Of a stretch of 64,000 nt of DNA, positions 9,071 through 64,000 are shown in pieces. Every line of letters starts with the position of its first letter. The first letter of the stretch is position 1. Location: NCBI GenBank assembly GCA_963712115.1, contig CAVQGX010000018.1:32001-96000 (forward strand), read 5' to 3'. This stretch comes from an uncultured delta proteobacterium (GTDB lineage Bacteria; Desulfobacterota; Syntrophobacteria; BM002). The notes under the pieces are model-generated. The model had not been told where the DNA came from and ran no database searches. It saw nothing but the letters and a program-made list of their open reading frames with translations. Position numbers and translations under genes: made by a program.

Positions 9071-9150
9071 AGGTTTCAGTGTTCAGGTTTCAGATTTTAC
9101 CCTTGATTTTTCTTTTTGCTGACACCTGAAACCTGACACCTGAAACCCTG
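9071..9150. repeat. Inverted heptamer-array element (TCAGGTT arm / CTGACAC-CTGAAAC arm)
   Basis: ggtttcagtgttcaggtttcag...ctgacacctgaaacctgacacctgaaaccctg; a second copy lies at ~19093-19148. Confidence 0.8.
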
Positions 9151-9276
9151 AGATTTGGTGTTTGGAATTTGATATTTTGCAATTCTCCACTACTCCAATA
9201 CTCCATTGCTCCAATAAGTAATTTCTTTGCTCAGTATGCTACACTCGCTCTGAATTTATGAAGGCTACAAGAAACT

Positions 9277-9570
9277 TTACTTGCATCCACCCTTCTGCGC
9301 ATTCCGCTTTCTTTCCGACCACCGTAGAATAGCTCCCACGATGCCGCCCGGTTCTTCAGGTTTTTCAGATTCAGATCGACTGTCAGATTTGAGCTTCTCC
9401 ACACCACCGCTAGCGGCAATAGCTGTTTGCAGACAGTCGCGCAAGTGGTCACAGAAGCGGCAGTTCTCCTGAGGCTGAATGATGCCGTTTTCATCCCTGG
9501 GCATGCAAGATTCAGGAATGCCAAAGCAAGAAGGCCTGTCGTCAACCATAAATTCTACCCAGAAGACCAA
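9277..9570 (-). CDS. Small Cys-rich hypothetical protein
   Basis: PSCFG...C..C....DCL; downstream of khpA; start may be the internal Met (MVDDRPSC). Confidence 0.6.
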   Translation of the reverse strand: MVFWVEFMVDDRPSCFGIPESCMPRDENGIIQPQENCRFCDHLRDCLQTAIAASGGVEKLKSDSRSESEKPEEPGGIVGAILRWSERKRNAQKGGCK

Positions 9571-9600
9571 AGAGCTGCGAGCTCGACAAAGTTGAATGGC

Positions 9601-9843
9601 TCAGAGCCCCTCTTCTTCAATGATCTCAAGAACTACACGCTTTTTGAGCTTAGCAGAGGCAGCGTTGAGGATTGTGCGCATAGCCTGGGCATTACGCCCT
9701 CGTTTGCCAATTACCTTGCCGAGGTCCTCTTTGGCTGTTCTCAGTTCGATTACTGAGGCATGTTCTCCTGCGACCTCGCTCACTCTCACCTGATCAGGAT
9801 GTTCAACCAGCGCCTTCGCCATAATTTCAATTAACTCTCTCAC
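9601..9843 (-). CDS. khpA: KH-domain RNA-binding protein KhpA
   Basis: [10 protein letters not shown]...[20 protein letters not shown]. Confidence 0.93.
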
Positions 9844-10050
9844 TGTCGCACCTCCATTGTCAACTGTGACAACGTCCGATATAAGATCATGCGGGAAAAT
9901 TGGAGTCGAGGATTTTTAGCGCAGATGATCGCTTCGACAAAATATATTCAGCCAATTGCTGCTGAGTCAAGCCTTTTTGCTATATGGGTTCGCTTCCGAG
10001 ATTTGCAGGACAAACGGCGGAAAGGGATTATTATCTTTTGGGACGGGGCC

Positions 10051-10854
10051 CTAGAGGGGATTACCAAGCACTTGTAAGAATTCCAGGACATGAGAAATTA
10101 CAATGGTCAAGATCACTCCAAGGGCAAGGAATCCCATTATGACAAGCGGCAGGAGGAGGGCAAAAAAAACTTTGGTTTTAGAGGTGTGGTGGGCCTGGCT
10201 AAGACCAACAAAGTATAACACTATTGCCCAAAGGGGCATTACTATCCTGCCCAGAAAGGGAATTACATTGATGATGGAGGTCGCGCCAGAGGCGTAGGCC
10301 ATCACCTGAAAGGTGGCTGAAAATGGACGTCGGCTTGCGAGTAGAATTCTAAGAACTAGGTGGACGAGCCCTGCAGCGAGGAAGATGAGGGCTAAGAATA
10401 GAACAGGAGTAAGCAAGATGGTACCAGCAAAGCGGACGGTGTTGTCTAAAGCGTTGCTTTCTATAATACCGTAGTGAATACCGAGGAGGGTAATCCAATA
10501 GCGGCCAATAATTTGTCCCAGAGATCCATAGATAAGCAAATATACAAGAGCGTTGCCTATACCAGCGTCGTAGTTTAAAGCTGAAAAGATAGCTGAGGGG
10601 CGAAAGAGAATGGACTTGCTGGTCCGCCAGAAGGCGGCCATATCCAACCATGAGCTTCGCATCTCCCACTCCACCCTCGGGGATTGTACCATCTTGCGCG
10701 CACCTTGTACGGAAGACGCCACTGACGAAACTTGTTCATCGGGGTAGATTATGAGTGTTTGGCAGCGAGGGCAAAAGAACGGCTGCTCTACAGTCATGCG
10801 GTTTGTGGCGCTGATTGCTCCCGCAAATTTACATTTTGGACAGCGAATAATCAT
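10051..10854 (-). CDS. Zinc-ribbon + YIP1 family membrane protein
   Basis: CPKC/CPRC N-terminus; Yip1-like five-TM C-terminus (F.ATFQV.AYASG). Confidence 0.8.
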   Translation of the reverse strand: MIIRCPKCKFAGAISATNRMTVEQPFFCPRCQTLIIYPDEQVSSVASSVQGARKMVQSPRVEWEMRSSWLDMAAFWRTSKSILFRPSAIFSALNYDAGIGNALVYLLIYGSLGQIIGRYWITLLGIHYGIIESNALDNTVRFAGTILLTPVLFLALIFLAAGLVHLVLRILLASRRPFSATFQVMAYASGATSIINVIPFLGRIVMPLWAIVLYFVGLSQAHHTSKTKVFFALLLPLVIMGFLALGVILTIVISHVLEFLQVLGNPL

Positions 10855-11067
10855 TGCATTTCATATTTAACGTTTACTTGCAATCGCTTCGCTCTGAACT
10901 ATCCTCAGAGTGCTCTGGCCATCTTCGAAGGACTCTACTCCAATTTTGAATAATAACATTATCCCCAGAGAGTTCATACCAATTCCTGTAGGAGCAAGCT
11001 GTGCGTGCCACGACGCAGAGCGCATTGCGCTGCGAGACGAGACTTTCAGCCGGCAGCTTACAACGGG

Positions 11068-11413
11068 CAGCTGGCAGGCAAAGAGTCACTTGCCTTCGGC
11101 GTCATTAGGTCACTACGCTCCGCTGTCATTTATTGTAAAAGGTTGAAGCCAGAGGTCAGAAGTCGGAGGTCGGAAGACAGAGGGCAGCAGGTCACTAGGC
11201 ACTAAGGACTAGGCACTAAACACCAAATTATATAAGAATTCAGGAGTCAGAATCCAGAATCCAGCAGGGAGAAACATAAAGAGTGTTCTTCCATTTTGGC
11301 TACTGGCTCCTGACGCCTGGCTCCTTGAGCTTTAAGACTTGAACGACTTAAAAGACTTAAAAGACTTAAAAGATTTCCTTTGACCTATGAGCTTTCAGCT
11401 GTGAGCTGATTTG
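11068..11413 (+). repeat. ~340-bp composite repeat, copy 1 (contains the 56-bp REP-like module A at 11083-11138)
   Basis: Near-identical to the reverse complement of 23036-23357; GACTTAAAA x3 here versus x2 there. Confidence 0.92.
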
Positions 11414-11450
11414 GCGATTTCAACCGACAAATGATAAATGTGAGATGCGT

Positions 11451-11506
11451 AACTGGGGCCCCAAAAAAAATTGGGGACTGAGCGGAGCGATGCGAGCGCG
11501 AAGAAA
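11451..11506 (+). repeat. Dispersed repeat D copy 1 (aactggggcc...ttggggactgagcggagcga.gcgagcgcgaagaaa)
   Basis: Second copy at 13649-13706. Confidence 0.85.
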
Positions 11507-11635
11507 CGAACAGTGATAAGTGGCTGTCGACATTACAAAAAATACTTTGACACTTTTATCTGACTATGGTACTCAGAGGAGAAAACGAGCAGGGTGATGT
11601 CAAACAACTTCGTCAGAAGCAGCTAGATGGAGTAA

Positions 11636-12490
11636 TTGGGCATGGCAGAGCAATTTGGGCGCGTGGCAATAGTTGGCCTTGGTTTGAAGGGAGGATCACT
11701 CGCAATGGTCCTTCGGAAGAAGCGCATTGCCAGGGAGGTCGTTGGTATAGATACGAATCAGACTATTCTAACCAAAGCAGTTCACCGTAATATTGTGGAC
11801 CAAGCGGTAGCAGAACTTGCAGAAGGTCTACCCCAAGCAGATCTGGTAGTCATAGCAGTGCCAACTCAATCCGCCCCTGAGGTTTTGGCCAGCGTTGCGC
11901 CCCATCTTCAGGTCGGTACAGTTGTGTGCGATGTGGGAAGGCTAAAAGGGCCTGTACTGGAAAAAGCAGGAGAAATACTACCTGAGGAGAATCCTTTTGT
12001 GGGCTGCCATCCTGTGGTTTACATGGAGGATAAAGATATCGATGAGGCTTTTCCTGCTCTCTTCCAAAACCGGCCCTGCATACTCACACTGGGCAGAAGG
12101 CGGGATGAGGAGGCTGTCAAACGGATCAGGGAGATGTGGGAGGCGGCAGGGTGCAAGGTCGAGGAAATGGACCCGGAGGTTCATGACCGGCTTTTTTCCG
12201 TACTAGAGGATCTTCCCGTCTTACTCATAAGACTTATCCATAAAGCTGCGGGTCAAGTAAGCCGCTATGTGGATGAGGTGGAAGATTATTTTAGCAGAGA
12301 GCTCAAAGAGATCGCCAAGATTGATGCCACCATTTCTCAGCAGGTGACGGAGAGATTTTGGGCTAATCGCAAATCAATTGTCCATGTTCTTGCCTATTAT
12401 CGCCTCAAACTAAAAGAAGTGAGCGAAGTACTACAGGGAGGAAGTCTCGATGATCTGAAGGCCCTATTGCAGCCGAGATATCGAGCATAA
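11636..12490 (+). CDS. tyrA: Prephenate/arogenate dehydrogenase family protein (divergent)
   Basis: Rossmann GLGLKGGSLA, DVG..K, HP, HDR; several active-site motifs are atypical. Confidence 0.7.
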   Translation: MGMAEQFGRVAIVGLGLKGGSLAMVLRKKRIAREVVGIDTNQTILTKAVHRNIVDQAVAELAEGLPQADLVVIAVPTQSAPEVLASVAPHLQVGTVVCDVGRLKGPVLEKAGEILPEENPFVGCHPVVYMEDKDIDEAFPALFQNRPCILTLGRRRDEEAVKRIREMWEAAGCKVEEMDPEVHDRLFSVLEDLPVLLIRLIHKAAGQVSRYVDEVEDYFSRELKEIAKIDATISQQVTERFWANRKSIVHVLAYYRLKLKEVSEVLQGGSLDDLKALLQPRYRA

Positions 12491-12541
12491 GCAGCTTTAT
12501 TCAGTCTCATGACCGCACAATTATTTATCTTAGGTGGGCCT

Positions 12542-12704
12542 TCAAAATTCTAAATCCTAAGCACGAAGCACGAAACAAATTCAAAATACCAATTCTTCAA
12601 TGTTCAAAATAAAATTGAACAAATAGACTCATCCTCGGTTTTGGTCCTTTGAATTTGGTGAATTCGAATTTGTTTCGGATTTCGATATTCGGATTTCGGA
12701 TTTC
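12542..12704. repeat. Inverted array element F (aaatcctaagcacgaa... / ...tttgtttcggatttcg)
   Basis: Complementary arms; homologous copy at ~55613-55745. Confidence 0.8.
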
Positions 12705-12744
12705 TATTGGTCTAATATTTTTATGCTGCCCGGCATAGGTCTTT

Positions 12745-13542
12745 TTGGGAATAGATGATTTGCCTATGGCCAGACCGTCTCCTGATCCTTCCATCACAAT
12801 TCCTCAGCTTGACGACCATCAGTCTAGGCCTCTTATGGCAAAAATGGCGCGTCTTTTACGCCAAATAGGCGCCTTGAAGGAGACTGAGCGATTCCGCCAA
12901 AACCTGAGACTGCCTCAGGAGGCCCTACGTTTGAGCCAACGGGCCTTTCGATTGTATGACGAATACCTAGTTTATGCCCTCAAAGAGCTAGGGAAAAAAG
13001 GCTGGCAGGTCTATTGCGCTCCGGGTTGTGCTGCCTGCTGTTTTAGCATGCCTGCAGGAATCAGCAATTGGGAGTTTCTCATAATTTATGATCATCTCCA
13101 GCAGGATGGACAACTTTCAAAGTTCTTCAGGAGAAATCTTGAAAGTTGCCAAGTACTCGCCCGGGTGAGTGGGCAACTGTTTGATGGGTGGACCAAGAAG
13201 GGAACCGAAGACAAGTCCAGATACGAGAGGCTTTTGCACGATTACATCCTGGCTAAACACCCCTGTGCTTTCCAAGGCGAATCACAGGATTGTCAGATCT
13301 ACTCGGTGCGACCACTGGCTTGTCGAATGCATTTTGCTTTCACCCCGCCTGAGTTATGTGACCCAACTCATCCCCATTTTTCTCAGGCAGTTCGTCTCAA
13401 TCTAAGTCCTCACGGTGATGCTGATGAGGAGTTGAAAAAGCTAGACTCCCGCCTAAACCTTGGCATTAGCGATCTCCTGGCTCCTGGGCTGGTCTCGCTG
13501 ACGGCCAATGTCCTGCGCTTCTCTCCTATTTCATGGATATAA
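12745..13542 (+). CDS. YkgJ-family CxxCxxCC cysteine-cluster protein
   Basis: CAPGCAACC, CAF, CQIYSVRPLACR. Confidence 0.85.
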   Translation: MGIDDLPMARPSPDPSITIPQLDDHQSRPLMAKMARLLRQIGALKETERFRQNLRLPQEALRLSQRAFRLYDEYLVYALKELGKKGWQVYCAPGCAACCFSMPAGISNWEFLIIYDHLQQDGQLSKFFRRNLESCQVLARVSGQLFDGWTKKGTEDKSRYERLLHDYILAKHPCAFQGESQDCQIYSVRPLACRMHFAFTPPELCDPTHPHFSQAVRLNLSPHGDADEELKKLDSRLNLGISDLLAPGLVSLTANVLRFSPISWI

Positions 13543-13648
13543 CATTTCTCATTTCTCATCTGTCATTTGCTATTTGGCAATTGTGATTTATCATTAAATA
13601 CTACTCTGCCGCGATTACCAGTGGCGGATATCGAATGAAGAAATGCGA

Positions 13649-13706
13649 AACTGGGGCCTCGACCAAGAGGTTGGGGACTGAGCGGAGCGAGGCGAGCGCG
13701 AAGAAA
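13649..13706 (+). repeat. Dispersed repeat D copy 2, abutting the uvrA start codon
   Basis: Matches 11451-11506. Confidence 0.85.
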
Positions 13707-16700
13707 TGAAAAATGATAACTGCATCAGGATAATAGGTGCAAAACAGAATAATCTAAAAAATCTGAGCCTGGACCTTCCCCGGGGACAACTTATCGCCGT
13801 TACTGGTGTGAGTGGCTCCGGCAAGTCAAGCCTGGCCTTGGAAACTCTTTATGCTGAGGGTCAACGGCGCTATGTTGAAACCTTCTCGCCCTATGCCCGC
13901 CAGTTCCTGGACAGACTTGACAGACCTCAGGTGGAGGCCATTATTGGCATCCCTCCAGCCATAGCCATAGAGCAAGGAAACCGCATCAAAAGTTCCCGTT
14001 CCACTGTGGGCACAATAACGGAACTTGCAGACCATCTCAAATTGCTCTTTGCCCGAACCGGAGTGCTCCATTGTGGGCAATGCGCCAGACCTGTTCATCA
14101 GGATAGCCTTGAGAACATTTGGTCCTCACTATCAAACGTCCCAGCAGAAACCCCGGCTCTGATAACTTTTCCATTGGAAAAGGAGGGTCGAACCATTGAG
14201 GATATTCGTCTCTATTTGTGGCGTCATGGGTTCCGTCGTCTTTGGCACCAGGGAAAAATACTTAACCTGGATGAACAGTCGATTCCTAATGACGAGCATC
14301 TTGATGTGTTGGTGGATAGAACTGTCTGGAGTCCGGAGAATAGAAAGCGGGTTTTTGACTCGATGGAGCAGGCCTACCATTTCGGCGAGGGTAAGCTCAA
14401 GGTAGTATTCCCCCCTGAGGTCGAGTATCAATTCTCAGCCACATACCATTGTGCTTTCTGTGACATTAGCTATCCTGCCCCCTCATCCCATCTCTTTTCC
14501 TTTAACAGTCCCTTGGGTGCCTGCGAGACCTGTCGAGGCTTCGGCCGAATTATCGATGTGGACCTCGATTTGGTGATACCAGACAAAAACTTGTCCTTGA
14601 AAAAGGGTGCAATCAAGCCGTGGTCCACAGGGCGGATGGAATACTATGATCTTATGGATTTCTGCACCGCGTTGGGAATCCCCACAGATATGCCCTTTAA
14701 CAAACTGTCACCAGGCCAGCAGGAGGCAGTAATAGAAGAAAGTGACGAATTCTACGGAGTCCGCGGCTTCTTTCGCTGGCTCGAAACCAAGACTTACAAG
14801 ATGCACGTTCGGGTTTTTCTTTCCCGCTACCGGGCCTATCTCACCTGTCCAGCCTGCGGAGGGAGTCGTTTTCAGCCTCTCACTCTGCTTTATCGGGTAG
14901 GTGATATGAACATTTCCGAAGTCAACCAGATTTCCATTACTCGGGCGCTGGTTTTTTTTAGACAGGTTGCCGGGACAATCAAGGCTGACCCTGCGTCTGC
15001 CTTGGTGTGCAGAGAGATCATTGCCCGTCTTACTTATTTGTCGGAAGTGGGGCTCGGCTATTTGAGTATGGATAGATCATCTCGTAGCCTTTCCGGAGGT
15101 GAGGTTCAGCGGGTCCACTTAACCCGTGCGCTGGGTTCACCGCTGGTCAATACTCTCTATGTGTTAGATGAGCCCAGTGTGGGTTTGCATCCCCGGGACA
15201 ACCAGAGACTGATAAACATCCTTAGGGCTCTCACACGCCAGCACAACACAGTAGTGGTAGTGGAGCACGACCCAGAGATCATTCGCGCCAGCGACTACCT
15301 CGTAGATCTGGGCCCGGGAGCAGGAGAGCGGGGCGGGGAGGCAGTATTTGCTGGACCCAGCGCTGATGTGGCTTCCGCCGAAAACTCTAGAACTGCTTTG
15401 TATCTCACTGGCCGCAGTCGCATCTCCCGACCAGGCAAAAGAAGAAAACCTCGTTCAGACCGTTGGTTGAATTTACTGGGCATAAAAACGCATAACCTCC
15501 AAAACCTTGATGTGCGCATTCCTTTGGGGCTTATGGTTGCTGTAACCGGAGTGTCCGGTTCCGGGAAAAGCACCTTAGTAGAAGAGGTACTCTATCGCAA
15601 CTGGCTTCGGGCCAAGGGGCTTGCCACTGACCCCCCTGGTTACTGTCGGAAGATAGAGGGTTGGAAGCATATCAACGATGTGGTGCTCATTGATCAGCAG
15701 CCCATTGGAAGATCTCCCCGGGCCAATCTGCTTACTTACACCGGAGCTTTGACCCCCATAAGGGATTTGTTTGCCAGGACGGATTTGGCAAAGCTGAGGA
15801 AATACGGTCCCGGTCATTTCTCCTTCAATGTGCCGGGTGGTCGCTGTGAGGCCTGTGCCGGCCAGGGATCCGAGAAAGTTGAGATGCAGTTTCTGGCTGA
15901 TGTTTATTTGGAATGTGGAGTGTGTAAAGGGAGCCGTTTCCGGGAAGAAATCCTGGAGGTGAGCTACCGGGGTTTTTCAATTGGACAGGTTTTGGGACTG
16001 ACCCTAAATGAAGCCATGGACCTCTTTGCAGATGAGCCGCGAGTCTTACGTGCTCTCTCCTTCCTGATTGGAGTGGGATTGGATTATCTGCGATTGGGAC
16101 AGCCCATCAGTACACTTTCGGGCGGTGAGAGTCAACGCTTGAAGCTTGCCCGCTCCCTGCAAGTAAAGGGTGACAAAAATACCCTAATCATCCTGGATGA
16201 ACCAACCACAGGGCTCCATGCTGATGACACCAAGTTGCTGGTGAAGACCTTGAATCGTCTTGTTGATGGAGGGAGCACAATTGTGGTGGTGGAACATAAT
16301 CTGGACGTAGTCCAATCTGTGGACCATGTAATTGACCTCGGCCCGGAAGGAGGAGATGAAGGAGGTAAGGTAGTCGCTGCAGGCACGCCAGAGGAAATCA
16401 GCAAGTCTTCAAAATCCCATACGGGCCGTTTTCTTGCCAAATACTGGGAGTCCACTGAAGAGGTCGTTGCCACCGGCAAGTTGCCCCAAAGCACTGATGA
16501 CCATGAGTTAGTGATGATCCGTGGCGCTCGGGAACATAATTTGAGAAATCTAAACCTGGATCTGCCCCGCGAGCAGCTAGTGGTAATTACCGGTGTGTCC
16601 GGGTCGGGCAAATCAACCCTGGCATTCAACGTCCTATTTGCCGAGGGCCAGCGCCGCTATTTGGATAGTCTTTCGACCTTTGCCAGGCAATATCTACCTA

Positions 16701-19003: not shown

Positions 19004-19020
19004 TCCAGCAGGCAGCTAAT

Positions 19021-19076
19021 GAGTCACTTGCCTTCGGCGTCATTAGGTCACTACGCTCCGCTGTCATTCATTGTAA
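19021..19076 (+). repeat. REP-like module A copy
   Basis: gagtcacttgccttcggcgtcattaggtcactacgctccgctgtcatt..ttgtaa, 17 bp after the uvrA stop. Confidence 0.92.
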
Positions 19077-19272
19077 GAGGTAGAGGACAGAATTCAGGTT
19101 TCAGCTTTTTTGTTTCTCTTCCCTGACACCTGACACCTGAAACCCTGCGAATTGTTGTTTGGGATTTCCGATTGCTCTCGGCAGCCTCACCTTGGTTGCA
19201 TGGCGGCGGCAGTGGCGGGCAGGTGCTGTGGACCGGGTGGGGAGGATTGAATAAAACTATTCTATGATCTTA

Positions 19273-19936: not shown

Positions 19937-20052
19937 ATCAGAGGACAGAAGACAGAAGTCGGAGGTCGGAAGTCAGAGGACAGAAGACAGAATTTCGGAT
20001 TGCGGATTTGGGATATGGGATGTGAGATATGAGATTTGGGATTGCGGATTTT
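19937..20052. repeat. Heptamer arrays (AGGACAG/AGGTCGG then GATTGCG/GATGTGA)
   Basis: Same module order at 47606-47740 and similar at 63845-63930. Confidence 0.8.
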
Positions 20053-20229
20053 TATCTGATCGCTGACGGCTGAATAGAACCGGCAAAACTGGCTAAACAG
20101 GCCAAACGAATTGTGAGGTTTGAACGATCGAATGACTAATGATAAACATTTATGATAGAATCGCGCTGCTTCGAGACAAGGAAGCATCCGGGCTAGAATC
20201 GATCAAGTAAACAAGGATAATAGTTAGAT

Positions 20230-20481: not shown

Positions 20482-20493
20482 CGGTAGATAAAA

Positions 20494-21168: not shown

Positions 21169-21191
21169 AGTCTCCTCCTCTGCCTAATTTT

Positions 21192-21797: not shown

Positions 21798-21803
21798 AAA
21801 CCA

Positions 21804-22163: not shown

Positions 22164-22668
22164 CTCCTGGGCTCAACTATTTTGTGCGTCTTCAAGTTAA
22201 TTACACGACTTCACCAGATTTGACAAGTCTTGCCCTCAGAGCCAAATTCGCTTGGCACTTCTGTTTATTGTTGAGTTTTTCCGACATGCACGTCTCATAC
22301 CACCTATATCGCATAGAGCATGGCGCATAGCGTCAATTAGTAGCATCGTTGAAGCCGTTGAAGTGGATGAAATCGTTCAAGTCGTTCGAATCGGTGCTGG
22401 AGGCCTCTCCCAGAGGAAAATCTCACACTTAGTTTGGCCGGTTTAGCCCGGTTGCCAGGTAGCACAGACAAGAATTCCACGTTCCGCGTTCCGACTTCCG
22501 CGTTTAAATCCTCGTCTCGCCTTATTTGGCATGCTGGTTGCTAATATAGTAAACGGTTAAAATCATATTACTCTTTAAGTGGTTGTTATATTTAAAAAAT
22601 TATCATGCAGGGGCGATTGGCCTTACCCGATTTTGTATACAATGAGATACATATACGGGAGGACTAAG

Positions 22669-22920: not shown

Positions 22921-23035
22921 GCAAAATCTGGTTCACTCAGAACATCTCTAGGCATTATCTGTAATGCTTTCGCATGGCGCTAAGTGCGGAGCTCATAGCG
23001 TCAATTGGTCTAATCGTTAAATCCGTTCAAGTCGT

Positions 23036-23357
23036 CAAATCAGCTCACAGCTGAAAGCTCATAGGTCAAAGGAAATCTTTTAAGTCTTTTAAGTCGTTCA
23101 AGTCTTAAAGCTCAAGGAGCCAGGCGTCAGGAGCCAGTAGCCAAAATGGAAGAACACTCTTTATGTTTCTCCCTGCTGGATTCTGGATTCTGACTCCTGA
23201 ATTCTTATATAATTGGTGTTTAGTGCCTAGTCCTTAGTGCCTAGTGACCTGCTGCCCTCTGCCCTCTGACTTCCGACCTCTACCTATTACAACAAATGAC
23301 AGCGGAGCGTAGTGACCTAATGACGCCGAAGGCAAGTGACTCATTGCCTGCCAACTG
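23036..23357 (-). repeat. ~320-bp composite repeat, copy 2 (module A at 23287-23342)
   Basis: Reverse complement of 11068-11413. Confidence 0.92.
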
Positions 23358-41185: not shown

Positions 41186-41360
41186 AACATACAAGGCGCA
41201 GGGTGCACGGCGAATTCATAGAATCCATTAGCCAGTAGCCAGTAGTCAGGAGCTGAAAGGGACTCGTTTCAGTTCTTATCTTGTGAATACTGGATGCTGG
41301 CTCTTTCACCTTATGCCTCGAGCCTTGCACCTTGTGCCCTAGCATGGGGGAGGAGAAAGC

Positions 41361-46150: not shown

Positions 46151-46152
46151 GT

Positions 46153-46313
46153 AATGTATCATTTCACATCTAACTTTTATCATTTGGTCGTTGAAGTCGT
46201 TCGAATCGTTAAACCCGTTGAAATCGTTCAAATCGTTGAAATCGTCAAACATTTCGAAATCCGCAATCTACAATCCAAAATCTAAAATCTCCCCTATACT
46301 CTATGCCCACTGC
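46153..46313. repeat. Nonamer (TCGTTGAAA) and heptamer (AATCCGC) arrays
   Basis: Tandem degenerate units between convergent stop codons. Confidence 0.75.
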
Positions 46314-46805
46314 TCACTTTTTCTTCGGTATATCAAAGGTCCTACCAATAACCCTTTCCGCTGCCCCTACTTGATCTTCTGCAATGACACACATGGAGGA
46401 TGTAATGGTAGTGGCGATGCTGAAAACTGTTATTCCGGCTTGTTCTAGTGCTCCAAAAAGCAGACCGGACGTGCCAGGACGAATGTCAAAATGAGCTCCC
46501 AAGACTCGAATCACCGCTACGGAGCGCCGCAGTTCCAAAGCCTGAGGCTGCATTCTATTAGTAACCTCCTTTAGTTCGGGCTCCAGGCGGGAGAAATCGT
46601 CGTTGGCAATACAGATGATCAAGTCACGGTTAAAATCGCCGGCGCAGCCTTCGAGGACAAATTTTACTGGAACGTTGTGGCGTTCCAGCAGGTCAAAGAG
46701 CGGCCTAGTTGCCCCTGGGCGAGTAGGGAGACGAAGAAAATTAAGCTGGATCAAATCGCGCAGAATTTTGAGGGGAAAGATTTCTAAGGTCTCGGTGACT
46801 CCCAC
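46314..46805 (-). CDS. Stand-alone aspartokinase-type ACT domain protein
   Basis: PTRPGA; VIRVLGAHFDIRPGTSGLLF.AL..AGI...SIATT..S. Confidence 0.75.
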   Translation of the reverse strand: MGVTETLEIFPLKILRDLIQLNFLRLPTRPGATRPLFDLLERHNVPVKFVLEGCAGDFNRDLIICIANDDFSRLEPELKEVTNRMQPQALELRRSVAVIRVLGAHFDIRPGTSGLLFGALEQAGITVFSIATTITSSMCVIAEDQVGAAERVIGRTFDIPKKK

Positions 46806-47573: not shown

Positions 47574-47870
47574 TTCGCATCTGTCATTCACCGTCCTCGA
47601 GCAAACGGGCAGAATTCGGAGGTCGGAGATCAGAAGTCGGAAGTCAGAGGACAGAATTTTGGATTGCGGATTTAGGATTGCGGATTGCGAATTTGGGATG
47701 TGAGATGTGGGATACGGGATGTGAGATTTCGGATTGCGAAACCGGGAACCCGCCCCAAGGGTGGGAGTCAGAAGGACAATTTCGAAATGTTTGAGGAGTC
47801 TACGATTTCTTCGGTTTCTACGGTTTCTACGATTTGAACGATTTAAACGACTAGATGACAAATGAGAAAT
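47574..47870. repeat. Mosaic of heptamer and nonamer arrays
   Basis: AGGTCGG, GATTGCG, GATGTGA, TCTACGGTT and AATGAGA modules. Confidence 0.78.
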
Positions 47871-48872
47871 GAAGAAATAATAGACTCCACCTACACCATC
47901 CGCCTTCGGGTAATGACCCTCGCCCTTGTGGTGGGTGGTTTATTGATGGCTGTCAAGTTCGTGGCTTACTTTACCACGGGCTCAGCAGCGATTCTTTCCG
48001 ACGCCCTTGAGTCTATTATAAATGTGGTTGCCAGTGGCTTTGTCCTCTACAGCATCTATTTGAGCCATCAGCCTCCTGATAAAACTCATCCCTATGGCCA
48101 CGGTAAGATTGAATACTTTGCAGTTGGTTTCGAGGGAGCACTCATCATCCTGGCGGCCGGGGCTATCCTCTACAAAGCAATCCCCGCTTTTTTCCAGGTA
48201 AGAATGCTGAGCAAGCTGGACTTCGGTATCTTTCTGGTGCTCGGAACTTCAGCTGTAAATCTTGTAATGGGGTTTTTCCTTATCCGCACCGGGCGCAGGA
48301 CCAGGTCCGCTCCTGTGGAAGCGGACGGCAAACACCTGCTCACCGATGTCTTCACCAGTGTGGGGGTGGTGATCGGCTTGGTTTTAGTTAAGGTGACCGG
48401 CTTGAACTGGTGGGATCCTTTAACCGCCTGTGCAGTTGCAGTCAATATAGTCATTACCGGTTGGCACTTGGTGAAACAGTCTTTTGGTAGACTGATGGAT
48501 GAAGCCGATCCAGAATTACTTGGAAGAATTGTTGAGATTTTAAACCAACATCGACACCCTGACTGGATAGATATTCATCAACTGCGGACTCGGCACTACG
48601 GAAATAAAGTTCACTTAGATTTTCACCTCGTTGTCCCACGAAGTCTTGGCCTTCCTGAAGCACACGTGGAGGCCAAAGAAATCGAGGAGAAAATTCTGAG
48701 CTCTCTAGTGGAAGTGGAGGAAGTCATCGTCCACGTGGATCCGTGCGAGGATCCCCTGTGCGAATGGTGTATGCGAGATAAGTGTCAGGATCGAAGCAAA
48801 GATTCTATTGGTGCAGCCGAGCCCTGGCTGGTGGAAAAAGTGGTGATGAAACGGCAGCATCGGGGGGAATGA
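47862..48872 (+). CDS. Cation diffusion facilitator (FieF-like)
   Basis: SAAILSDALES, PPDKTHPYGHGKIEY, HLLTD, VIVHVDP. Confidence 0.93.
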   Translation: MRNEEIIDSTYTIRLRVMTLALVVGGLLMAVKFVAYFTTGSAAILSDALESIINVVASGFVLYSIYLSHQPPDKTHPYGHGKIEYFAVGFEGALIILAAGAILYKAIPAFFQVRMLSKLDFGIFLVLGTSAVNLVMGFFLIRTGRRTRSAPVEADGKHLLTDVFTSVGVVIGLVLVKVTGLNWWDPLTACAVAVNIVITGWHLVKQSFGRLMDEADPELLGRIVEILNQHRHPDWIDIHQLRTRHYGNKVHLDFHLVVPRSLGLPEAHVEAKEIEEKILSSLVEVEEVIVHVDPCEDPLCEWCMRDKCQDRSKDSIGAAEPWLVEKVVMKRQHRGE

Positions 48873-48873: not shown

Positions 48874-49177
48874 CTAGGCACTAAACAGCTGGCAGCTTGC
48901 AGCGGGCAGCTGGCAGGCAGAGGACAGAGGTCGAGAGGTCGGAAGTCAGAGGTCAGAGGGCAGAAGACAGAGGCAGTTGTTCAAAGTTTAAAGTTCCAAG
49001 TTCAATGCTAAGAGTGAAGGGTTTCCAACGCTTACGGCTCACTGCTTACCGTTTACTGTTAACGAATTGACTAGTCTACCAATTGACTAATTAACTATTT
49101 CAGCGACTTCAACTATTTGACCAAATCGCCCTGAGCCTTGCGCCCTTTGCCTTAGTGAATGAGAAATGAGAAATGAC
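48874..49177. repeat. Mosaic of at least seven short-unit arrays
   Basis: TAGGCAC, GCAGCTG, AGGTCAG, GTTCAAA, TTGACTAA, CCTTGCG and AATGAGA modules in series. Confidence 0.78.
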
Positions 49178-50453: not shown

Positions 50454-50462
50454 AGATCCACT

Positions 50463-50683
50463 TGTGGATTGTAGATTTCAGATTGTAGATTTGGTAAGGC
50501 ATAGAGCATAGAGCACGGGGCATAGAGTAAGGAGCCAGGAGTCAGAATCCAGAATTCAGGAGAAAAGCAATCAAAATTAAGTTCCTCTCAACTACTTGCC
50601 ACTGACTACTGGCTACCTCTTTATGGTGCCTAGTGTTTAGTGCTTAGTGCCTAGTGGTTTCTATGCAATCTGCAATCTTAAAT
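50463..50683. repeat. Nested inverted heptamer arrays
   Basis: GATTGTA, GCATAGA and GAGTCAG arms followed by their complements in reverse order. Confidence 0.75.
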
Positions 50684-52412: not shown

Positions 52413-52500
52413 AACCTCCTCCTTTTCCGCCTAATCTTGAGGCTCATCACCCCGGGTAATACATTGCAGAACTACTAATTAAATCACCGAGTGTTACAAT

Positions 52501-52697: not shown

Positions 52698-52834
52698 GAC
52701 ACTTTACAATTTTTATCTATGATTCGCAACCACCATTTCCCATTTCAAATTTATCATTTATCATTTATTCATTTGGCATGATTAGTTAAAAAGTTGTTAG
52801 GATCCGTCGTTGAATAATAAATGACAAATGCTAG

Positions 52835-53896: not shown

Positions 53897-53900
53897 CAGA

Positions 53901-53952
53901 GGGCATAGAGCATGGAGTCTTGAATATTTATCTTACCCTATGCTCTATGCCC
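53901..53952. repeat. Inverted GCATAGA/TCTATGC heptamer hairpin after the rtcA stop
   Basis: gggcatagagcatggagt...accctatgctctatgccc. Confidence 0.75.
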
Positions 53953-54118
53953 CATGCGCCATGCTGAAAAAATGAACAATGACTGGTGGCAAATTTTGTG
54001 TTAGTCTGATGCGAATTCCCGCGACAATTGCTTACCTTCATTTCCAACACCAAACTCGGTATTCGCTTTCCTCAATAGTGGGAAGTTTACACGTGCCCCA
54101 TTTGGGCGTGGAGGTGAC

Positions 54119-55570: not shown

Positions 55571-55612
55571 TCAAGCATAGGGCATGGAGCAGAGAGCAGG
55601 GACAACCAGGCG

Positions 55613-55745
55613 CGGAAGCACGAAATTCGAAATCCTAAGCACTAAACAAATACGAATGTCCAAATCTCAAAATTCCAAAGGATCAGCGATAGAGAAATAG
55701 GTTTTGGAAATTTGAATTTTGAATTTCGGATTTGTTTCGGATTTT
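55613..55745. repeat. Inverted array element F copy
   Basis: Homologous to 12542-12704. Confidence 0.75.
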
Positions 55746-55771
55746 ACAAGGTTTTCAAATAACAAGTAATT

Positions 55772-57477: not shown

Positions 57478-57533
57478 GAGTCACTTGCCTTCGGCGTCAT
57501 TAGGTCACTACGCTGCGCTGTCATTTATTGTAA
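57478..57533 (+). repeat. REP-like module A copy
   Basis: 56-bp match to 11083/19021/62192. Confidence 0.92.
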
Positions 57534-57608: not shown

Positions 57609-57659
57609 CTGAATTGCGAAATGAGAAATGATTAAATGTGAAATGACGGGGGAGCAGGG

Positions 57660-58028
57660 ATGAAGCGACGAACGGTTTTGTTAAACATTATTTTTACTTG
57701 TGGATTGGCTGTTCTTTTACTGCCTGATGCATGGGCGCAAGACTACGGTCAAATCCGAGCCTTGAAAAACAGGGCAGAGACCGTAAATCAACAAAAGAAT
57801 CATTTTGTCGCTCAGGTATTGCACTCATATAACATACCCTGTCAGGTTACCGCGGAGGGCATTGTTGCTCGGCTGCATATTCAAAATCGCTGGTATGATG
57901 TCAACCAAATTGAGATTGTTCCGGTAACTAGAGAGGTGGAAGGGGGTTACCAGGTCATAGCTCATGAAATATTCTTCTACACAGAAGGTGATATCCTCCA
58001 CTTAGTTTCAGCAGCTACAATCCGTTAA
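57660..58028 (+). CDS. Secreted hypothetical protein
   Basis: Sec signal peptide ending AWA. Confidence 0.7.
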   Translation: MKRRTVLLNIIFTCGLAVLLLPDAWAQDYGQIRALKNRAETVNQQKNHFVAQVLHSYNIPCQVTAEGIVARLHIQNRWYDVNQIEIVPVTREVEGGYQVIAHEIFFYTEGDILHLVSAATIR

Positions 58029-60221: not shown

Positions 60222-61157
60222 ATGAGTAGCCGAGGACTGGTTTTCCTTTTTCCTGGACAAGGGTCACAATATGTTGGCATGGGAAAAGCCTTCTATGACG
60301 AGTATCAAGAAGTCCGGGACCTCTTTTCCCGGGCCAACAAGGTCCTCGAGATGGACGTGGAACAGCTCTGCTTCGAGGGCCCGGAAGATGAACTGCTGCT
60401 CACCCATAATGTCCAACCTGCAATCACCCTGATAAACATGGCATGCTCAATGGTTCTCACGCTGCAAGGCGTGGAGGCTGCAGCAGCAGCCGGTCATAGT
60501 CTTGGAGAATACAGTGCCATTCATCTGGCTGGAATTATCGATGAAAGAACTGTGCTGGAGTTGGTGCGACTCAGGGGCCAGCTTATGCAGAAAGCAGCAG
60601 ATGAGCAACCAGGCGCTATGGCAGCTATTCTTAATCTGCCTGCGGAAAAGATTGATGAGGTTTGTGAGAGCTGTGACATTGAGATGGCCAATTATAACTC
60701 TCCGGGGCAAATAATTGTGAGCGGTGTCGAAGAAAGTGTTATTCGGGCAATGGAGATCTGCTCCGATGCTGGGGCGAAAAGATGTGTGCGGTTGAATGTG
60801 AGCGGTCCATGGCATAGTCGGTGTATGGTAACGGCCAGGGAGAAGTTTGAGCCTGAATTGGCGCAGTACATATTCCAGGATCCAATAATCCCCGTTGTGG
60901 CTAATGTGGATGGTGCCTACGTGCGAGACGGTAATAGTGCCAGAGAAAATCTTGCCCAGCAATTATGCGCCCCTGTTCTCTGGCAGCAATCAATTGAAAG
61001 GTTGATCAACGACGGGCATCAAAGGTTTGTTGAAGTTGGGCCCAAAAAGGTGCTAAGAGGCCTAATGCGGCAGATTGACCGCAATGTGGAGGTCTATAAC
61101 GTGGAGGATCCAGAGAGTCTGGAGGCATTTCTGAAAGCAGTGAGGGGAGAAGAGTAA
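60222..61157 (+). CDS. fabD: Malonyl CoA-ACP transacylase
   Basis: FPGQGSQ, GHSLGEY, NYNSPGQ, VSGPWHS. Confidence 0.95.
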   Translation: MSSRGLVFLFPGQGSQYVGMGKAFYDEYQEVRDLFSRANKVLEMDVEQLCFEGPEDELLLTHNVQPAITLINMACSMVLTLQGVEAAAAAGHSLGEYSAIHLAGIIDERTVLELVRLRGQLMQKAADEQPGAMAAILNLPAEKIDEVCESCDIEMANYNSPGQIIVSGVEESVIRAMEICSDAGAKRCVRLNVSGPWHSRCMVTAREKFEPELAQYIFQDPIIPVVANVDGAYVRDGNSARENLAQQLCAPVLWQQSIERLINDGHQRFVEVGPKKVLRGLMRQIDRNVEVYNVEDPESLEAFLKAVRGEE

Positions 61158-61356
61158 TCGGTCAGAGGACAGAAGACAGAAGACAGAAGGCAGCAGGCAG
61201 TCCAACTAGGCACTAGACACTATGCACTAAGCACTAACTCAATGAGAGAATAGCCCTGCGCCCTGAGCCTTATGCCTGGATGCTCACCGTTGAATGTTTT
61301 GGCTATTCGATCTGTTCTACGATTCGAGCTGGAAAGACTAGAGGAGGAAGATTAGC

Positions 61357-62178
61357 ATGAAGGACCAGCTTAATAAGGTAAACGAGAGTGTGGCTTTTCT
61401 CGAAAGAGAGACCGAACTTCGCCCACACATAGCCGTTGTGCTCGGGACTGGCCTGGGCGGGCTAGCCGATAAAATTGAAGCTGCTGCCGTGATTCCATAC
61501 AAGAACATACCAAATTTTCCCATTTCAACAGTATTAAGCCACGAGGGTCGTTTAATATTTGGCTCGTTGGGGGGTAAAACGATGGCGGCAATGCAGGGCC
61601 GTTTTCACTTTTACGAAGGCTACGAACCAAAGGAGATCACTTTTCCTATCCGGGTCATGGCGGCTATGGGGATAAAGACCTTGCTCATCTCTAATGCTGC
61701 TGGTGGACTTGATCTTTCTTTCCAGGCTGGTGACCTCATGCTCATAAGCGATCATATAAATCTCACCGGTCAAAATCCGCTGCGAGGCGATAACGTAGAT
61801 GAGTGGGGACCACGTTTCCCTGATATGACCGCACCGTACAATCGGGGACTCATTAACCTGGCTCGAAAGGCGGCAAAGGACCTGGACATCAAAATCCATA
61901 AGGGTGTTTACGTTGGTGTTCCAGGTCCGAGTATGGAAACCGCGGCAGAAACCCGTTTTCTTCGAATAATCGGGGCTGATGCTGTGGGAATGTCCACCAT
62001 CCCAGAGGTTATTGTTGCCGTACACGCAGGTCTCAGAGTTCTTGGGTTGTCAGTGATCACCAATGTGAATGATCCAGACAACTACCAGCCGGCTCCCCTT
62101 GAGCAGGTCATTGCCACGGCAAAAGGGGCGGAACCAAAGCTGGTGAGGTTGGTGGAGGAGATTCTTAGGCGGGTTTAG
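61357..62178 (+). CDS. punA: Purine nucleoside phosphorylase (trimeric type)
   Basis: VLGTGLG, QGRFHFYEG, NAAGG, GPSMET.AE, VGMST.PE. Confidence 0.92.
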   Translation: MKDQLNKVNESVAFLERETELRPHIAVVLGTGLGGLADKIEAAAVIPYKNIPNFPISTVLSHEGRLIFGSLGGKTMAAMQGRFHFYEGYEPKEITFPIRVMAAMGIKTLLISNAAGGLDLSFQAGDLMLISDHINLTGQNPLRGDNVDEWGPRFPDMTAPYNRGLINLARKAAKDLDIKIHKGVYVGVPGPSMETAAETRFLRIIGADAVGMSTIPEVIVAVHAGLRVLGLSVITNVNDPDNYQPAPLEQVIATAKGAEPKLVRLVEEILRRV

Positions 62179-62191
62179 GCGGGCAGGCAAT

Positions 62192-62247
62192 GAGTCACTT
62201 GCCTTCGGCGTCATTAGGTCACTACGCTCCGCTGTCATTTGTTGTAA
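62192..62247 (+). repeat. REP-like module A copy
   Basis: 56-bp match, 13 bp after the PNP stop. Confidence 0.92.
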
Positions 62248-62425
62248 TAGGTAGAAGAAAGAGGAGAGTCTAACTAGGGACTATGCACTTGGCACCCAAG
62301 AGTGATTACACTTCGCGCATGTGCGCTTCTTTGTCACTTGGGCTGCGCCCGTCATTAGGCCTGACGGCCGTCATTGGGGGGGGTGTGTCATCACAATGAA
62401 TGACAATAAATGACAGCTAAGCGTA

Positions 62426-63811
62426 ATGACGGCGAAGCCACATGACCTGATGGTATTTTCTAGAGCGGAGCCGAATAATATGAGGAACGCCGGAGAAAAC
62501 AGGACTCGGGTAGATTTAGTCATACACAATGCCAAGGTTCTTACCCTCAACGATTCGGATGATATCCTTAATCCGGGAGCTGTTGCCATCCGTAATGACG
62601 AAATAGTGTGGGTTGGCCCCGAAGACTCATGGCCCGGCCAATTTGAGCCGGGGGAGCGGCTGAATATGGCCGGCGGTTTGATAATGCCGGGTTTGATAAA
62701 CGCGCACACCCACGCTGCCATGACCTGTTTTCGAGGCCTGGCCGATGACCTGCCTCTTTCTGTGTGGCTGAATGAACACATTTTTCCTGCCGAGAGAAAG
62801 ATTAATGGGGAATTGGTCTACAAGGGAACTCTTCTGGCTTGTGCGGAAATGATTTTGAGCGGAACCACAACTTTCTGCGACATGTACTTATTTGAAGACC
62901 AAGTGGCGAAAGCTGCCCATGAAGCCGGCATGAGGGCCCTAGTAGGAGAAGTCCTTTACGACTTCCCATCTCCCAATTACGGACCGCCGGAAAATGGTTT
63001 ATCTTTCACCAAGGAACTGATTAATACCTGGGAAAAGGACCCCCTGGTCTCAGTTGCTGTAGAGCCCCACGCGGTTTACACGTGCTCTCCCGACTTGCTA
63101 AGAGCTTGTCATGACATAGCACTGGAATACGGGGTTCCCATGATTATCCACCTTGCGGAGTCGCAGGATGAAGTAGATCAGGTTAAGAACCTATACCGAA
63201 AGTCACCAGTAATGCACCTGGAAAAGCTGGGGCTTCTGGGGCCGCACCTTGTTGCCGACCACTGTGTTGTCCTTGAAGTTGAGGAGATGGACTTACTTGC
63301 CGAGAGAGGTGTAAAAGTTGTCCATAATCCCGAGAGTAATATGAAACTGGCTTCTGGTGTTGCACCAGCGGTTGAACTATTGGCTCGCGGTGTTGCAATG
63401 GGCCTGGGAACAGATGGCTGTGCCAGTAACAATAACTTGGACATGTTGGCGGAAATGGACACCGCCGCCAAACTACACAAGGTTTACAGACTTGATCCCA
63501 CTGTTATGGAGGCCAGGACGGTTACGCACTTAGCCGTCAGAGGAGGCTCCAGAGTCTTGGGTGTGGAAGACAAAGTGGGTTGCCTCGAGCCTGGCAAAAA
63601 GGCTGACATCATTGGTTTGGACCTGGATAAGCCCCACCTGACTCCACTTTATAATATATATTCTCATGTTGTTTACGCAGCATCCGCCGCTGACGTTACA
63701 CTGAGCATTATTAATGGCCGGGTAGTGATGCGAAATCGTGAATTACTCACCTTGGATGTGGAACGGGTCATGGCTGAGGTTCGAGCTATCGCGAAGCAGA
63801 TTAAGTCCTAG
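62426..63811 (+). CDS. mtaD: 5'-methylthioadenosine/S-adenosylhomocysteine deaminase family amidohydrolase
   Basis: NAHTH, RGLADDLPL..WL, PHAVYTC, HLAES, SNMKLASG, GTDGCASNN; start uncertain (62426/62480). Confidence 0.88.
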   Translation: MTAKPHDLMVFSRAEPNNMRNAGENRTRVDLVIHNAKVLTLNDSDDILNPGAVAIRNDEIVWVGPEDSWPGQFEPGERLNMAGGLIMPGLINAHTHAAMTCFRGLADDLPLSVWLNEHIFPAERKINGELVYKGTLLACAEMILSGTTTFCDMYLFEDQVAKAAHEAGMRALVGEVLYDFPSPNYGPPENGLSFTKELINTWEKDPLVSVAVEPHAVYTCSPDLLRACHDIALEYGVPMIIHLAESQDEVDQVKNLYRKSPVMHLEKLGLLGPHLVADHCVVLEVEEMDLLAERGVKVVHNPESNMKLASGVAPAVELLARGVAMGLGTDGCASNNNLDMLAEMDTAAKLHKVYRLDPTVMEARTVTHLAVRGGSRVLGVEDKVGCLEPGKKADIIGLDLDKPHLTPLYNIYSHVVYAASAADVTLSIINGRVVMRNRELLTLDVERVMAEVRAIAKQIKS

Positions 63812-63834
63812 CGCAAAGCGGTTCATCAAGCATG

Positions 63835-64000
63835 CAGCGGGCAGCAGAAGTCAGATGAGCAGAGGGCAGAGGACAGAGAGAAGATTTTAGATTGTAGATT
63901 GCGGATTTCGAATTTCGAATTTCGAAATTATTGAACTGCGATTTGAATGCTTTTTTCGATTTCAACGACTTGAACGACTTGCAACGCTTCTGAACGATCA
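63835..64000. repeat. Heptamer/nonamer array mosaic
   Basis: AGGACAG, GATTGCG, AATTTCG and TTGAACGAC modules. Confidence 0.72.

Follow-up and report, generated by a model that had tools for sequence, protein, structure and literature searches.

Tandem heptanucleotide arrays and dispersed composite modules in the intergenic DNA of an uncultured deltaproteobacterium

Here we describe a system of short tandem arrays, built mainly on units of 7 nucleotides (nt), that occupies the intergenic DNA of a 64,000-nt stretch of contig CAVQGX010000018.1, from an uncultured delta proteobacterium. This stretch, at its full length, is called the window below, and all window counts refer to these 64 kb of one genome. 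The arrays are genuine and far exceed what chance would produce. They are confined to long-resident non-coding DNA, and most of them belong to a small number of dispersed composite modules (about 80-375 nt) that have been copied between gaps, the copies then changing by insertion or deletion of whole units. On balance, we consider it probable that they are lineage-specific, fast-evolving tandem arrays of 7 nt (some of 9 nt, very few of 8 nt), largely selfish or neutral, which accumulate with residence time. They are of the same kind as bacterial long simple sequence repeats, the cyanobacterial short tandemly repeated repetitive (STRR) sequences and the GGGAATC arrays of Xanthomonas; the system is therefore a known kind of feature, long simple-sequence or STRR-like, in a lineage in which it was undescribed.

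The first-pass annotation of this DNA had framed the arrays in cyanobacterial terms, a framing which does not survive a look at the named protein relatives. Those of FabD (60222-61157) are "Deltaproteobacteria bacterium" metagenome-assembled genomes (MAGs; 88, 70 and 63%), a Syntrophobacteria bacterium (68%) and a Syntrophobacteraceae bacterium (60%), and those of the biotin carboxylase (54119-55570) belong to Deltaproteobacteria (82%), Syntrophobacteria (80%), Desulfobaccales (76%) and Desulfobacterales (75%). Closer relatives, of 90-98% protein identity, exist as well. Cyanobacterial names are absent from the 120 best matches in each of these two protein searches, and the cyanobacterial hallmark palindrome HIP1 (GCGATCGC) occurs 0 times in the 64 kb. 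Judging by these relatives, the host is an uncultured Desulfobacterota-type deltaproteobacterium and not a cyanobacterium, so that the resemblance to STRR is one of kind only.

Arrays in long-resident non-coding DNA

Over the whole window, Tandem Repeats Finder returned 81 rows, among which period 7 accounts for 42, periods 14 or 21 for 11, and period 9 for another 11. A lag-match scan of our own (score of at least 9) covered 13,204 nt of non-coding DNA in 53 segments, with 50 dinucleotide-preserving shuffles as the control. It detected 27 period-7 arrays covering 844 nt (shuffles: mean 0.0, maximum 0), six period-9 arrays against 0.08 expected, and a single period-8 array against 0.14. Periods 4-6 gave no arrays and periods 10-12 one or two apiece in the same non-coding DNA, and the scan of the coding DNA of the window found no period-7 array. 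At a laxer score there were 68 arrays of period 7-9, 55 of these non-coding. Arrays were recovered by the two methods at essentially every place where the first-pass annotation had reported them, and its vocabulary of 7-, 8- and 9-mers holds for the heptamers, which stand far above the shuffles, and for the nonamers; the octamers are marginal, with one clear array at 9180-9216.

The units are highly degenerate and number 2-16 per array, and their vocabulary is common to gaps, since 62 distant array pairs score at least 22, against 11.8 (maximum 16) when the unit columns are permuted. Furthermore, for several arrays a period of 14, 16 or 21 nt gives a better fit than the basic one, as would be expected if blocks of two or three units duplicate in place: with Tandem Repeats Finder, period 14 beats period 7 at 9119 (100% vs 86%) and at 47656 (94% vs 80%), and period 21 does so at 47695 (89% vs 75%). 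Over the whole window, neither Rfam 15 at gathering score nor a tRNA scan gave a match, and the gap 22921-23733, compared with plasmids by blastn in distant mode, had no match.

For the gap counts, the gene set was amended with three small real genes, encoding a response regulator (1559-1933), KhpA (9601-9843) and rubredoxin (52251-52412). Among host gaps of at least 100 nt between 9 and 64 kb, 18 of 24 contain a period-7 array, and 17.9% of gap bases are array. None of the 14 such gaps in the integrated element (24.9-40.0 kb) does so (host vs element, Fisher p = 4e-6), and neither do the two gaps in 1-9 kb. The absence of arrays from the element had been noticed in the first-pass annotation, and its notion of a genome-resident modular repeat system gains from it, as well as from the composite modules traced below. 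A recently integrated element would be free of arrays because these accumulate with residence time.

The element itself spans 15 kb (24880-39953) and has at its two ends the copies of a 17-nt direct repeat, AAACCGATGTTTCTTTA (24880-24896 and 39937-39953), the first of which is the 3′ end of the phosphofructokinase gene. It encodes integrase fragments (25006-25353 and 25555-25851, apparently split), a DnaB-type helicase (36984-38363) and, at 29083-33669, an open reading frame (ORF) of 1528 amino acids with no Pfam match.

Composite modules and a 48-nt core

The clearest case of copying is module A, of which the window holds two nearly identical copies in opposite orientation. Its order is GCAGCTG-type units, a 48-nt non-repetitive core, a CAGAGGT/CGGAAGT (TCAGRAG) array, a CACTAGG (ACTAGGC) array, an inner hairpin made by a CAGGAGT/CAGAATC arm and a CTGGCTC/CTGACGC arm, and a GACTTAAAA nonamer array. 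The core also occurs outside module A, and the copies are the following:

11068..11427, plus strand: composite module A, copy 1, from the dispersed-repeat search; about 375-nt module
23022..23357, minus strand: composite module A, copy 2, inverted, 11.7 kb from copy 1 (I2, 142 nt at 99%; also I3, I6 and I8)
11083..11130, plus strand: core copy 1, 0 mismatches
19021..19068, plus strand: core copy 2, 18 nt past the stop of the 13706-19003 gene and followed by a module X copy
23295..23342, minus strand: core copy 3, within module A copy 2
57478..57525, plus strand: core copy 4, 1 mismatch, 30 nt past the stop of 55772-57448, flanked by GCAGSNG units and a GGTCGGAAGTCA array
62192..62239, plus strand: core copy 5, 14 nt past the stop of 61357-62178

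When the two copies of module A are aligned, 323 columns match, 13 mismatch and 37 are gaps. Three indels lie inside the alignment block: one of 14 nt, equal to two heptamers, in the CAGAGGT array, one of 9 nt, equal to one nonamer, in the GACTTAAAA array, and one of a single base. A further gap of 13 nt lies at the 3′ edge of the block. Such a pair, differing by whole units, bears out the earlier view of an actively propagated system as far as recent copying is concerned. The homology starts and stops within arrays, and no terminal inverted repeats or target duplication were seen at module A; because of this, copying would have proceeded by recombination or template switching inside arrays. 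The gain and loss of units would reflect replication slippage, and over time only the non-repetitive cores would remain recognisable.

The inverted copies (11068-23357) enclose about 11.6 kb of ordinary genes, and 360-nt inverted repeats at such spacing could mediate inversion of the segment.

Of the five core copies in the window four are perfect and one carries 1 mismatch, and none was found in 100 shuffles. All are flanked by GCAGSNG-type units on the 5′ side and by a purine-rich heptamer array on the 3′ side, and three of the five lie in sense orientation 14-30 nt past a stop codon. The core is rich in GTCAYT words, the word GTCATT/AATGAC appearing four times within it, and has no Rfam match. 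A contig-collection search with the radical SAM protein at 49173-50453 returned at least 80 loci of other lineages (best 61% identity among the matches listed, in Desulfobacterales), and a core profile run with nhmmer against 80 fetched loci gave a single weak match (E=0.45) and none that is credible. As for core copy 5, its gap (62179-62425) has no tandem array by the scan, yet it is dense in GTCATT/AATGAC words, shows good folding (z=-3.44) and holds, at 62401-62446, a degenerate partial copy of the core in inverted orientation.

Four gaps contain module B, three of them on the plus strand (at 19.9, 47.6 and 63.8 kb) and one on the minus strand (46.15-46.33 kb). A CAGARGW array comes first and is followed by a GGATTKN array, the spacer TTCGAAATGTTTGA, a nonamer array and, last, AATGAYA units; array order and spacer are kept in the four gaps and unit counts are very different. 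The copies are purine/G+T-rich all along and have no opposed complementary arm. Module X is a short hairpin-forming pair of arrays, with a diverged copy joined to a core.

19939..20215, plus strand: module B copy 1; CAGARGW array, GGATTKN/GGGATRT array (16 units in all), nonamer array, AATGAYA units before the start at 20230 (D1)
47603..47875, plus strand: module B copy 2; the terminal AATGAGA array holds the ATG of the 47862 gene
46151..46316, minus strand: module B copy 3, inverted, directly past the stop of the minus-strand gene 46314-46805; TCGTTGAAA nonamer array (I9)
63843..64000, plus strand: module B copy 4, truncated by the window edge
9071..9147, unstranded: module X; AGGTTTC-type array and complementary CTGACAC/CTGAAAC array, forming a hairpin
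19088-19167: diverged copy of module X, joined to a core (repeat D6, 75% identity)

Known repeats, gene context and competing explanations

Judged by the heptamer consensus, the published sequences nearest to the arrays are the paired class-3 heptamer sites (MTYCTGA) of Geobacter metallireducens. The sections of the Geobacter account used here describe tandem units that are paired across opposite strands, the distance being variable, with 24 pairs of 8-mers, 21 of 9-mers and 8 of 7-mers (consensus MTYCTGA), class 3 being Gmet_I301-I308; they propose the pairs as sites of global regulators of IHF/HU type and report insertion sequences at fixed distance from class-1 sites (Aklujkar et al., 2009, PMC2700814). 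ISGme8/9 did not come up in the part of the supplementary files that was searched. In the window, (MTYCTGA)3 with up to 3 mismatches has 20 matches against 0.06 expected, the best three with 1 mismatch; 1.17 Mb of 80 unrelated loci hold 6. The best matches (ATTCTGGATTCTGACTCCTGA and relatives) carry the same ATTCTGA and CTCCTGA units as Geobacter supplement S9, and the class-1 and class-2 consensus have 0 matches in the window.

Both systems share tandem MTYCTGA heptamers (ATTCTGA, CTCCTGA, CTTCTGA), an intergenic position and a former deltaproteobacterial host, and the Geobacter genome, as described in those sections, also has 8-mer and 9-mer arrays paired on opposite strands. The described class-3 sites have about 5 units each, number 8 pairs per 4-Mb genome and always come as opposed pairs 75-115 nt apart, whereas the TCAGRAK loci of the window, 7 on one strand and 2 on the other in 64 kb, are mostly unpaired, have 2-16 units and are embedded in composite modules with other array families. 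Opposed TCAGRAK-type arms are found at 11233/11297 and in its 23-kb copy, at 50528/about 50600 and, as a variant, at 9071/9119; the loci at 19938, 47630, 48939, 61162 and 11156 have no opposed arm of the same family.

Among long simple sequence repeats (units of 5-11 nt), heptamers are described as the most abundant class in many bacteria, with polymerase slippage as the proposed cause (Mrazek, 2007, as cited in PMC4679880 and PMC4692102). The arrays of the window resemble them in being head-to-tail, longer than chance and variable in unit number, the last seen between paralogous copies of modules A and B.

The STRR of cyanobacteria, reportedly described by Mazel et al. in 1990, have CCCCAGT, TTGGTCA and CAACAGT as the canonical units of STRR1-3. 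The likeness asserted in the first-pass annotation holds in kind, as several tandem heptanucleotide families are dispersed across non-coding DNA, and fails for the host and for the units: tandem dimers of STRR1-3 with up to 2 mismatches occur 0 times each in the window, where two array consensus sequences show a 1-mismatch likeness at chance level only. Moreover, nonamer arrays and non-repetitive cores belong to the system of the window.

The GGGAATC/GGGGAYT arrays of Xanthomonas and Nostoc are, in the cited parts of the source, intergenic and nearer the end of the upstream ORF (in Xanthomonas at a mean of 28 nt from the 5′-neighbouring ORF), sometimes in inverted pairs and variable in length between close relatives (Rehm et al., 2015, PMC4692102). 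The present arrays are alike in these respects and unlike them in having many mixed units instead of a single G-rich, quadruplex-forming one; GGGAATC has 0 array matches in the window. TAACTGA direct repeats, reported from marine Beggiatoaceae, some Cyanobacteria and Bacteroidetes, are placed by the cited passages just upstream of start codons (MacGregor, 2015, PMC4679880), like the AATGAGA arrays at 47855, 49158 and 57611; they consist of one dominant unit with stop codons in all frames, whereas in the window this positional class is one among several families. According to the part of a preprint used here, deletion of heptamers in Nostoc 7120 alters reporter output. Among the papers searched, no other dealt with deltaproteobacterial heptamer arrays.

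Short dispersed non-coding modules between genes, able to form hairpins, also recall repetitive extragenic palindromes (REP), bacterial interspersed mosaic elements (BIME), REP doublets forming hairpins (REPIN) and MITEs (miniature transposable elements with inverted repeats). Unlike these, the array modules have neither defined ends nor terminal inverted repeats nor target duplications, and Pfam finds no RAYT-type or Y1 (IS200/IS605-like) transposase among 118 window ORFs. The features of a MITE are found only in a separate 185-nt element, and not in the array modules, whose homology fades inside arrays. The small dispersed repeats (SDR) of Nostocaceae were reportedly described by Elhai et al. 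in 2008 as very small conserved units nested in other intergenic repeats. The 48-nt core behaves in the same way, nested in other repeats; it differs in its host, SDRs being confined to Nostocaceae in the part of the literature cited here (PMC5861425).

The 185-nt element just mentioned is GC-rich and dispersed, with copies at 52505-52689 and, inverted, at 23471-23655 that share 91% identity and have 22-nt terminal inverted repeats; the outer 7 nt are not the same in the two copies, although in each they still form inverted repeats. The element, which resembles a MITE or a structured RNA and has no match in Rfam, accounts for the strong fold of the gap 52413-52834.

With respect to genes, arrays are present in host gaps of every type (tandem, 9 of 12; divergent, 6 of 8; convergent, 3 of 4), so that, contrary to the earlier description, they are not specifically features of 3′ untranslated regions. 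For 31 genes, an array lies within 15 nt past the stop in 6 and within 50 nt in 12; on the start side, the figures are 2 and 5. The claim that arrays begin a few bp from stop codons is thus true in part. The purine-rich orientation is on the plus strand at 7 of 9 TCAGRAK loci; the plus strand is also the coding strand of most neighbours, and the two effects are inseparable. AATGAGA-type arrays lie on or just before the start codons of three genes (47855-47872, 49158-49176 and 57611-57631), and homologues of the radical SAM protein align from residue 1-6, which supports its array-embedded start at 49173. Consensus scans of 44-64 kb for sigma-70-like promoters and for intrinsic terminators showed no enrichment (21 vs 21.1 and 22 vs 19.2), and none of the 22 terminator-like sites there is located in a gap (coordinates read by eye).

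As each AATGAGA unit contains an ATG, consecutive ATGs of such arrays cover all three frames, and a change in unit number could alter translation initiation.

Pairing between arrays is a property of a subset of gaps. Compared with dinucleotide shuffles, 8 of 20 array gaps fold with z<=-2 on at least one strand (9049-9600, 10855-11635, 12491-12744, 41060-41360, 50451-50686, for which the plus strand alone was folded, 52413-52834, whose signal stems from the separate MITE-like element, 53897-54118 and 55571-55771), and 12 fold no better. The clearest case is the convergent gap 50454-50682, a single nested hairpin with G.U pairs on the plus strand (z=-5.49; 0 of 200 shuffles and 0 of 30 flips as good). 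The minus strand around module X (9049-9230) folds with z=-4.67. The stretch 11040-11440 of module A copy 1 forms one long hairpin (about 300 nt; z=-3.83), where the common 5-bp word AAGTC/GACTT lets a heptamer arm pair with a nonamer arm. Across gaps, the controls show no common rule of pairing or orientation. At a score of at least 22, 1 of 70 within-gap array pairs is Watson-Crick complementary (9075/9119, in module X). RNA duplex energies within and between gaps are -0.394 and -0.372 kcal/mol per nt (p=0.23 on the plus strand, 0.53 on the minus strand). Chimeric 5′ and 3′ gap halves pair as well as native ones (mean rank 0.49 and 0.50, native pairing being in the best tenth in 1 and 2 of 20 gaps only). 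When array and spacer blocks of 19 gaps (one long gap was left out) are randomly flipped, the mean z is -0.39 on the plus and +0.07 on the minus strand, and 3 of 19 gaps fall below -2 on the better strand. The complementary arm pairs and long hairpins of the first-pass annotation are hence true of some gaps and not of arrays at large.

These data bear directly on its main functional idea, that the arrays make long 3′-end RNA hairpins, which would serve as terminators or mRNA stabilisers. The eight well-folding gaps, above all the convergent one and module A, the arrays close past six stops and the lack of canonical terminator-like sites in the gaps of 44-64 kb speak for it; the 12 gaps that fold no better than shuffles, the flip control, the chimeric halves, the absence of a complementary arm in module B and the equal frequency of arrays in divergent gaps, which have no 3′ ends, speak against it, and we grant it a small chance. 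Hairpins would rather be a property of some modules, which may act as 3′-end RNA structures where canonical terminators are missing. On another proposal, a gene-shuffling system would have its empty sites, for attachment or for cassettes, in the paired arrays, with TIGR02436 four-helix-bundle or GxxExxY genes as cargo and the enzyme encoded elsewhere. Small ORFs without family assignment at 22579-22920 and 57660-58028, between array-rich gaps, would fit this proposal. Nevertheless, no four-helix-bundle (PF05635/TIGR02436), GxxExxY/PDDEXK_3 or RAYT-type Y1-transposase gene was found by Pfam among 62 larger and 56 smaller window ORFs or by NCBIfam among 15, the module ends are not defined sites, and a literature search pairing the TIGR02436/GxxExxY family names with repeats gave nothing relevant; the window lends the cassette claim no support, and we hold the idea very improbable. 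That the arrays arise from assembly or sequencing errors is hardly credible at all, since they are restricted to non-coding DNA, their module architecture is consistent between gaps, start and stop codons sit in arrays in frame with conserved genes, and comparable systems have been published.

An alternative of another nature is that a protein with sequence-specific affinity for DNA or RNA, IHF/HU-like or a single-strand binder with a 7-nt register, uses the arrays as its binding platforms, which would thus act as global regulatory sites such as those proposed in Geobacter. The over-represented class-3 consensus, the limited vocabulary common to gaps and the AATGAGA arrays at starts point in this direction, as do the published sites of Geobacter and Beggiatoaceae and the reporter effect in Nostoc, each within the part of the source cited above. 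Against this stand the degeneracy and variable number of the units, the many different families side by side, the presence of arrays at all kinds of gap position, the lack of class-1 and class-2 matches and the fact that the Geobacter proposal is itself a hypothesis. We know of no binding protein for any of these heptamer systems. We regard the protein-binding explanation as unlikely overall, and it stays alive because of the consensus shared with Geobacter, the invariant core and the positional preferences. A related possibility, which we would put at a low probability, is that TCAGRAK/MTYCTGA arrays and the 48-nt core are cis-elements of a conserved system, in which a heptamer-register binding protein or recombinase would use the arrays and copy modules without defined transposon ends. 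The use of the arrays would then be 3′-end or translation-start control, and the consensus shared with Geobacter would extend across orders of the former Deltaproteobacteria. Several observations weigh against largely selfish or neutral arrays, the explanation that we favour. Contact with stops exceeds contact with starts (6 vs 2 of 31 genes within 15 nt) and AATGAGA arrays overlap two start codons, both of which suggest a positional function. The core is identical in 4 of 5 copies though its flanks differ, which could mean constraint, and the occurrence of the MTYCTGA/TCAGRAK consensus in Geobacter, a member of a different order, hints at sequence-specific selection, for example by a binding protein. 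Furthermore, substitutions between the module A copies are not commoner in arrays (3 of 144 positions, vs 10 of 192 outside; p=0.16), and the transition/transversion ratio between neighbouring units, 0.91, is unremarkable and carries no signal.

Other features of the window and significance

Further arrays of the window are listed below.

9180..9216, plus strand: CTCCAMTA array, the sole clear case of octamers (about 4.6 units; better fit with period 16)
12541..12704, unstranded: TTCTAAA, AAGCACG and TTCGGAT arrays, an imperfect inverted pair (I11; fold z=-3.18)
13543..13576, plus strand: CATTTCT array (complement of the AATGAGA family), beginning one base past the stop of 12745-13542
22306..22504, unstranded: ATAGCGC, TCGTTGAAG (nonamer) and TTCCGCG arrays in a divergent gap (D4, D5)
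41193..41342, unstranded: CAAGGCG-type arm, CCAGTAG array and CCTTGNG-type arm forming a hairpin, adjoining the IS110 element (z=-3.68; flip z=-2.08)
48886..49005, plus strand: CAGCTGG, CAGAGGT and GTTCAAA arrays, beginning 13 nt past the stop of 47862-48872
49158..49176, plus strand: AATGAGA array holding the start codon of the radical SAM gene at 49173
50454..50682, plus strand: TTGTAGA, GCATAGA and AGGAGYC/AGAATYC arrays mirrored by CTGRCTA, TAGTGCY and TGCAATC; convergent gap, one nested hairpin
52733..52768, plus strand: TCATTTA array, 66 nt ahead of the start at 52835
53936..53965, plus strand: CTATGCY array (complement of GCATAGA), from the repeat table and shared vocabulary
55623..55744, plus strand: AAATTCGAAATCC... 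repeat, resembling 12545-12592, and GAATTTT array (D8; z=-4.17, minus strand)
61163..61269, plus strand: CAGAAGA, ACTAGGC and GCCCTGM arrays, beginning 5 nt past the stop of 60222-61157

Beside the hairpin at 41193-41342, and just past the right end of the integrated element, lies an IS110-family transposase gene (40058-41059, minus strand), whose region is flanked on both sides by CTTAAGC (about 40036 and 41098).

The radical SAM protein with the array-embedded start reaches no curated NCBIfam cutoff, and its ESM Atlas clusters are named "radical SAM protein" only. Its relatives among the matches listed (45-61% identity) come from Desulfobacterota, Bacteroidota, Omnitrophota, Planctomycetota and others, with many from Bacteroidota and Omnitrophota. 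A linkage between this gene and heptamer arrays was considered and rejected: although 4 of 80 loci (L021, L042, L047 and L068) have an array at about 90 nt or less from the gene, those genomes are array-rich in many gaps. Complementary paired heptamer arrays are also seen in loci from Chitinophagaceae, Thermodesulfobacteriota and MAGs of the Planctomycetes-Verrucomicrobia-Chlamydiae (PVC) group (L068, L047, L011, L052, L053 and L042), and in a SEEP-SRB2 MAG (L021, 1654-2656) the arrays lie within an ORF of 976 amino acids (1468-4398, minus strand), not between genes.

Two other kinds of repeat were noted. A 52-nt repeat of 90% identity is found at 11471-11522, 114 nt upstream of the start at 11636, where it is preceded by GGGGCCCC plus an A-run, and at 13671-13722, where it overlaps the start codon at 13706. 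The ORF that begins there (13706-19003, 1765 amino acids) encodes two sets of UvrA-type domains (UvrA interaction, DNA-binding and several ABC ATPase modules) and is a double-length UvrA paralogue. In the hybrid histidine kinase gene at 44225-46150, a 384-nt tandem duplication (44717-45438; 1.9 copies, 75% matches) corresponds to duplicated PAS domains.

Intergenic repeats dominated by heptamers have been on record for 35 years, from cyanobacteria, Xanthomonas, Beggiatoaceae, Bacteroidetes and Geobacter, and neither a mechanism nor a function is accepted for them. The window adds a high-density example, with 17.9% of host gap bases in arrays, from an uncultured lineage of Desulfobacterota, and it makes clear that an STRR-like repeat does not imply a cyanobacterium. 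It also offers three handles on the problem: a recent duplicate, module A, which displays whole-unit insertions and deletions; composite modules whose conserved non-repetitive cores make the copies traceable; and a heptamer consensus in common with Geobacter, a genetically tractable relative.

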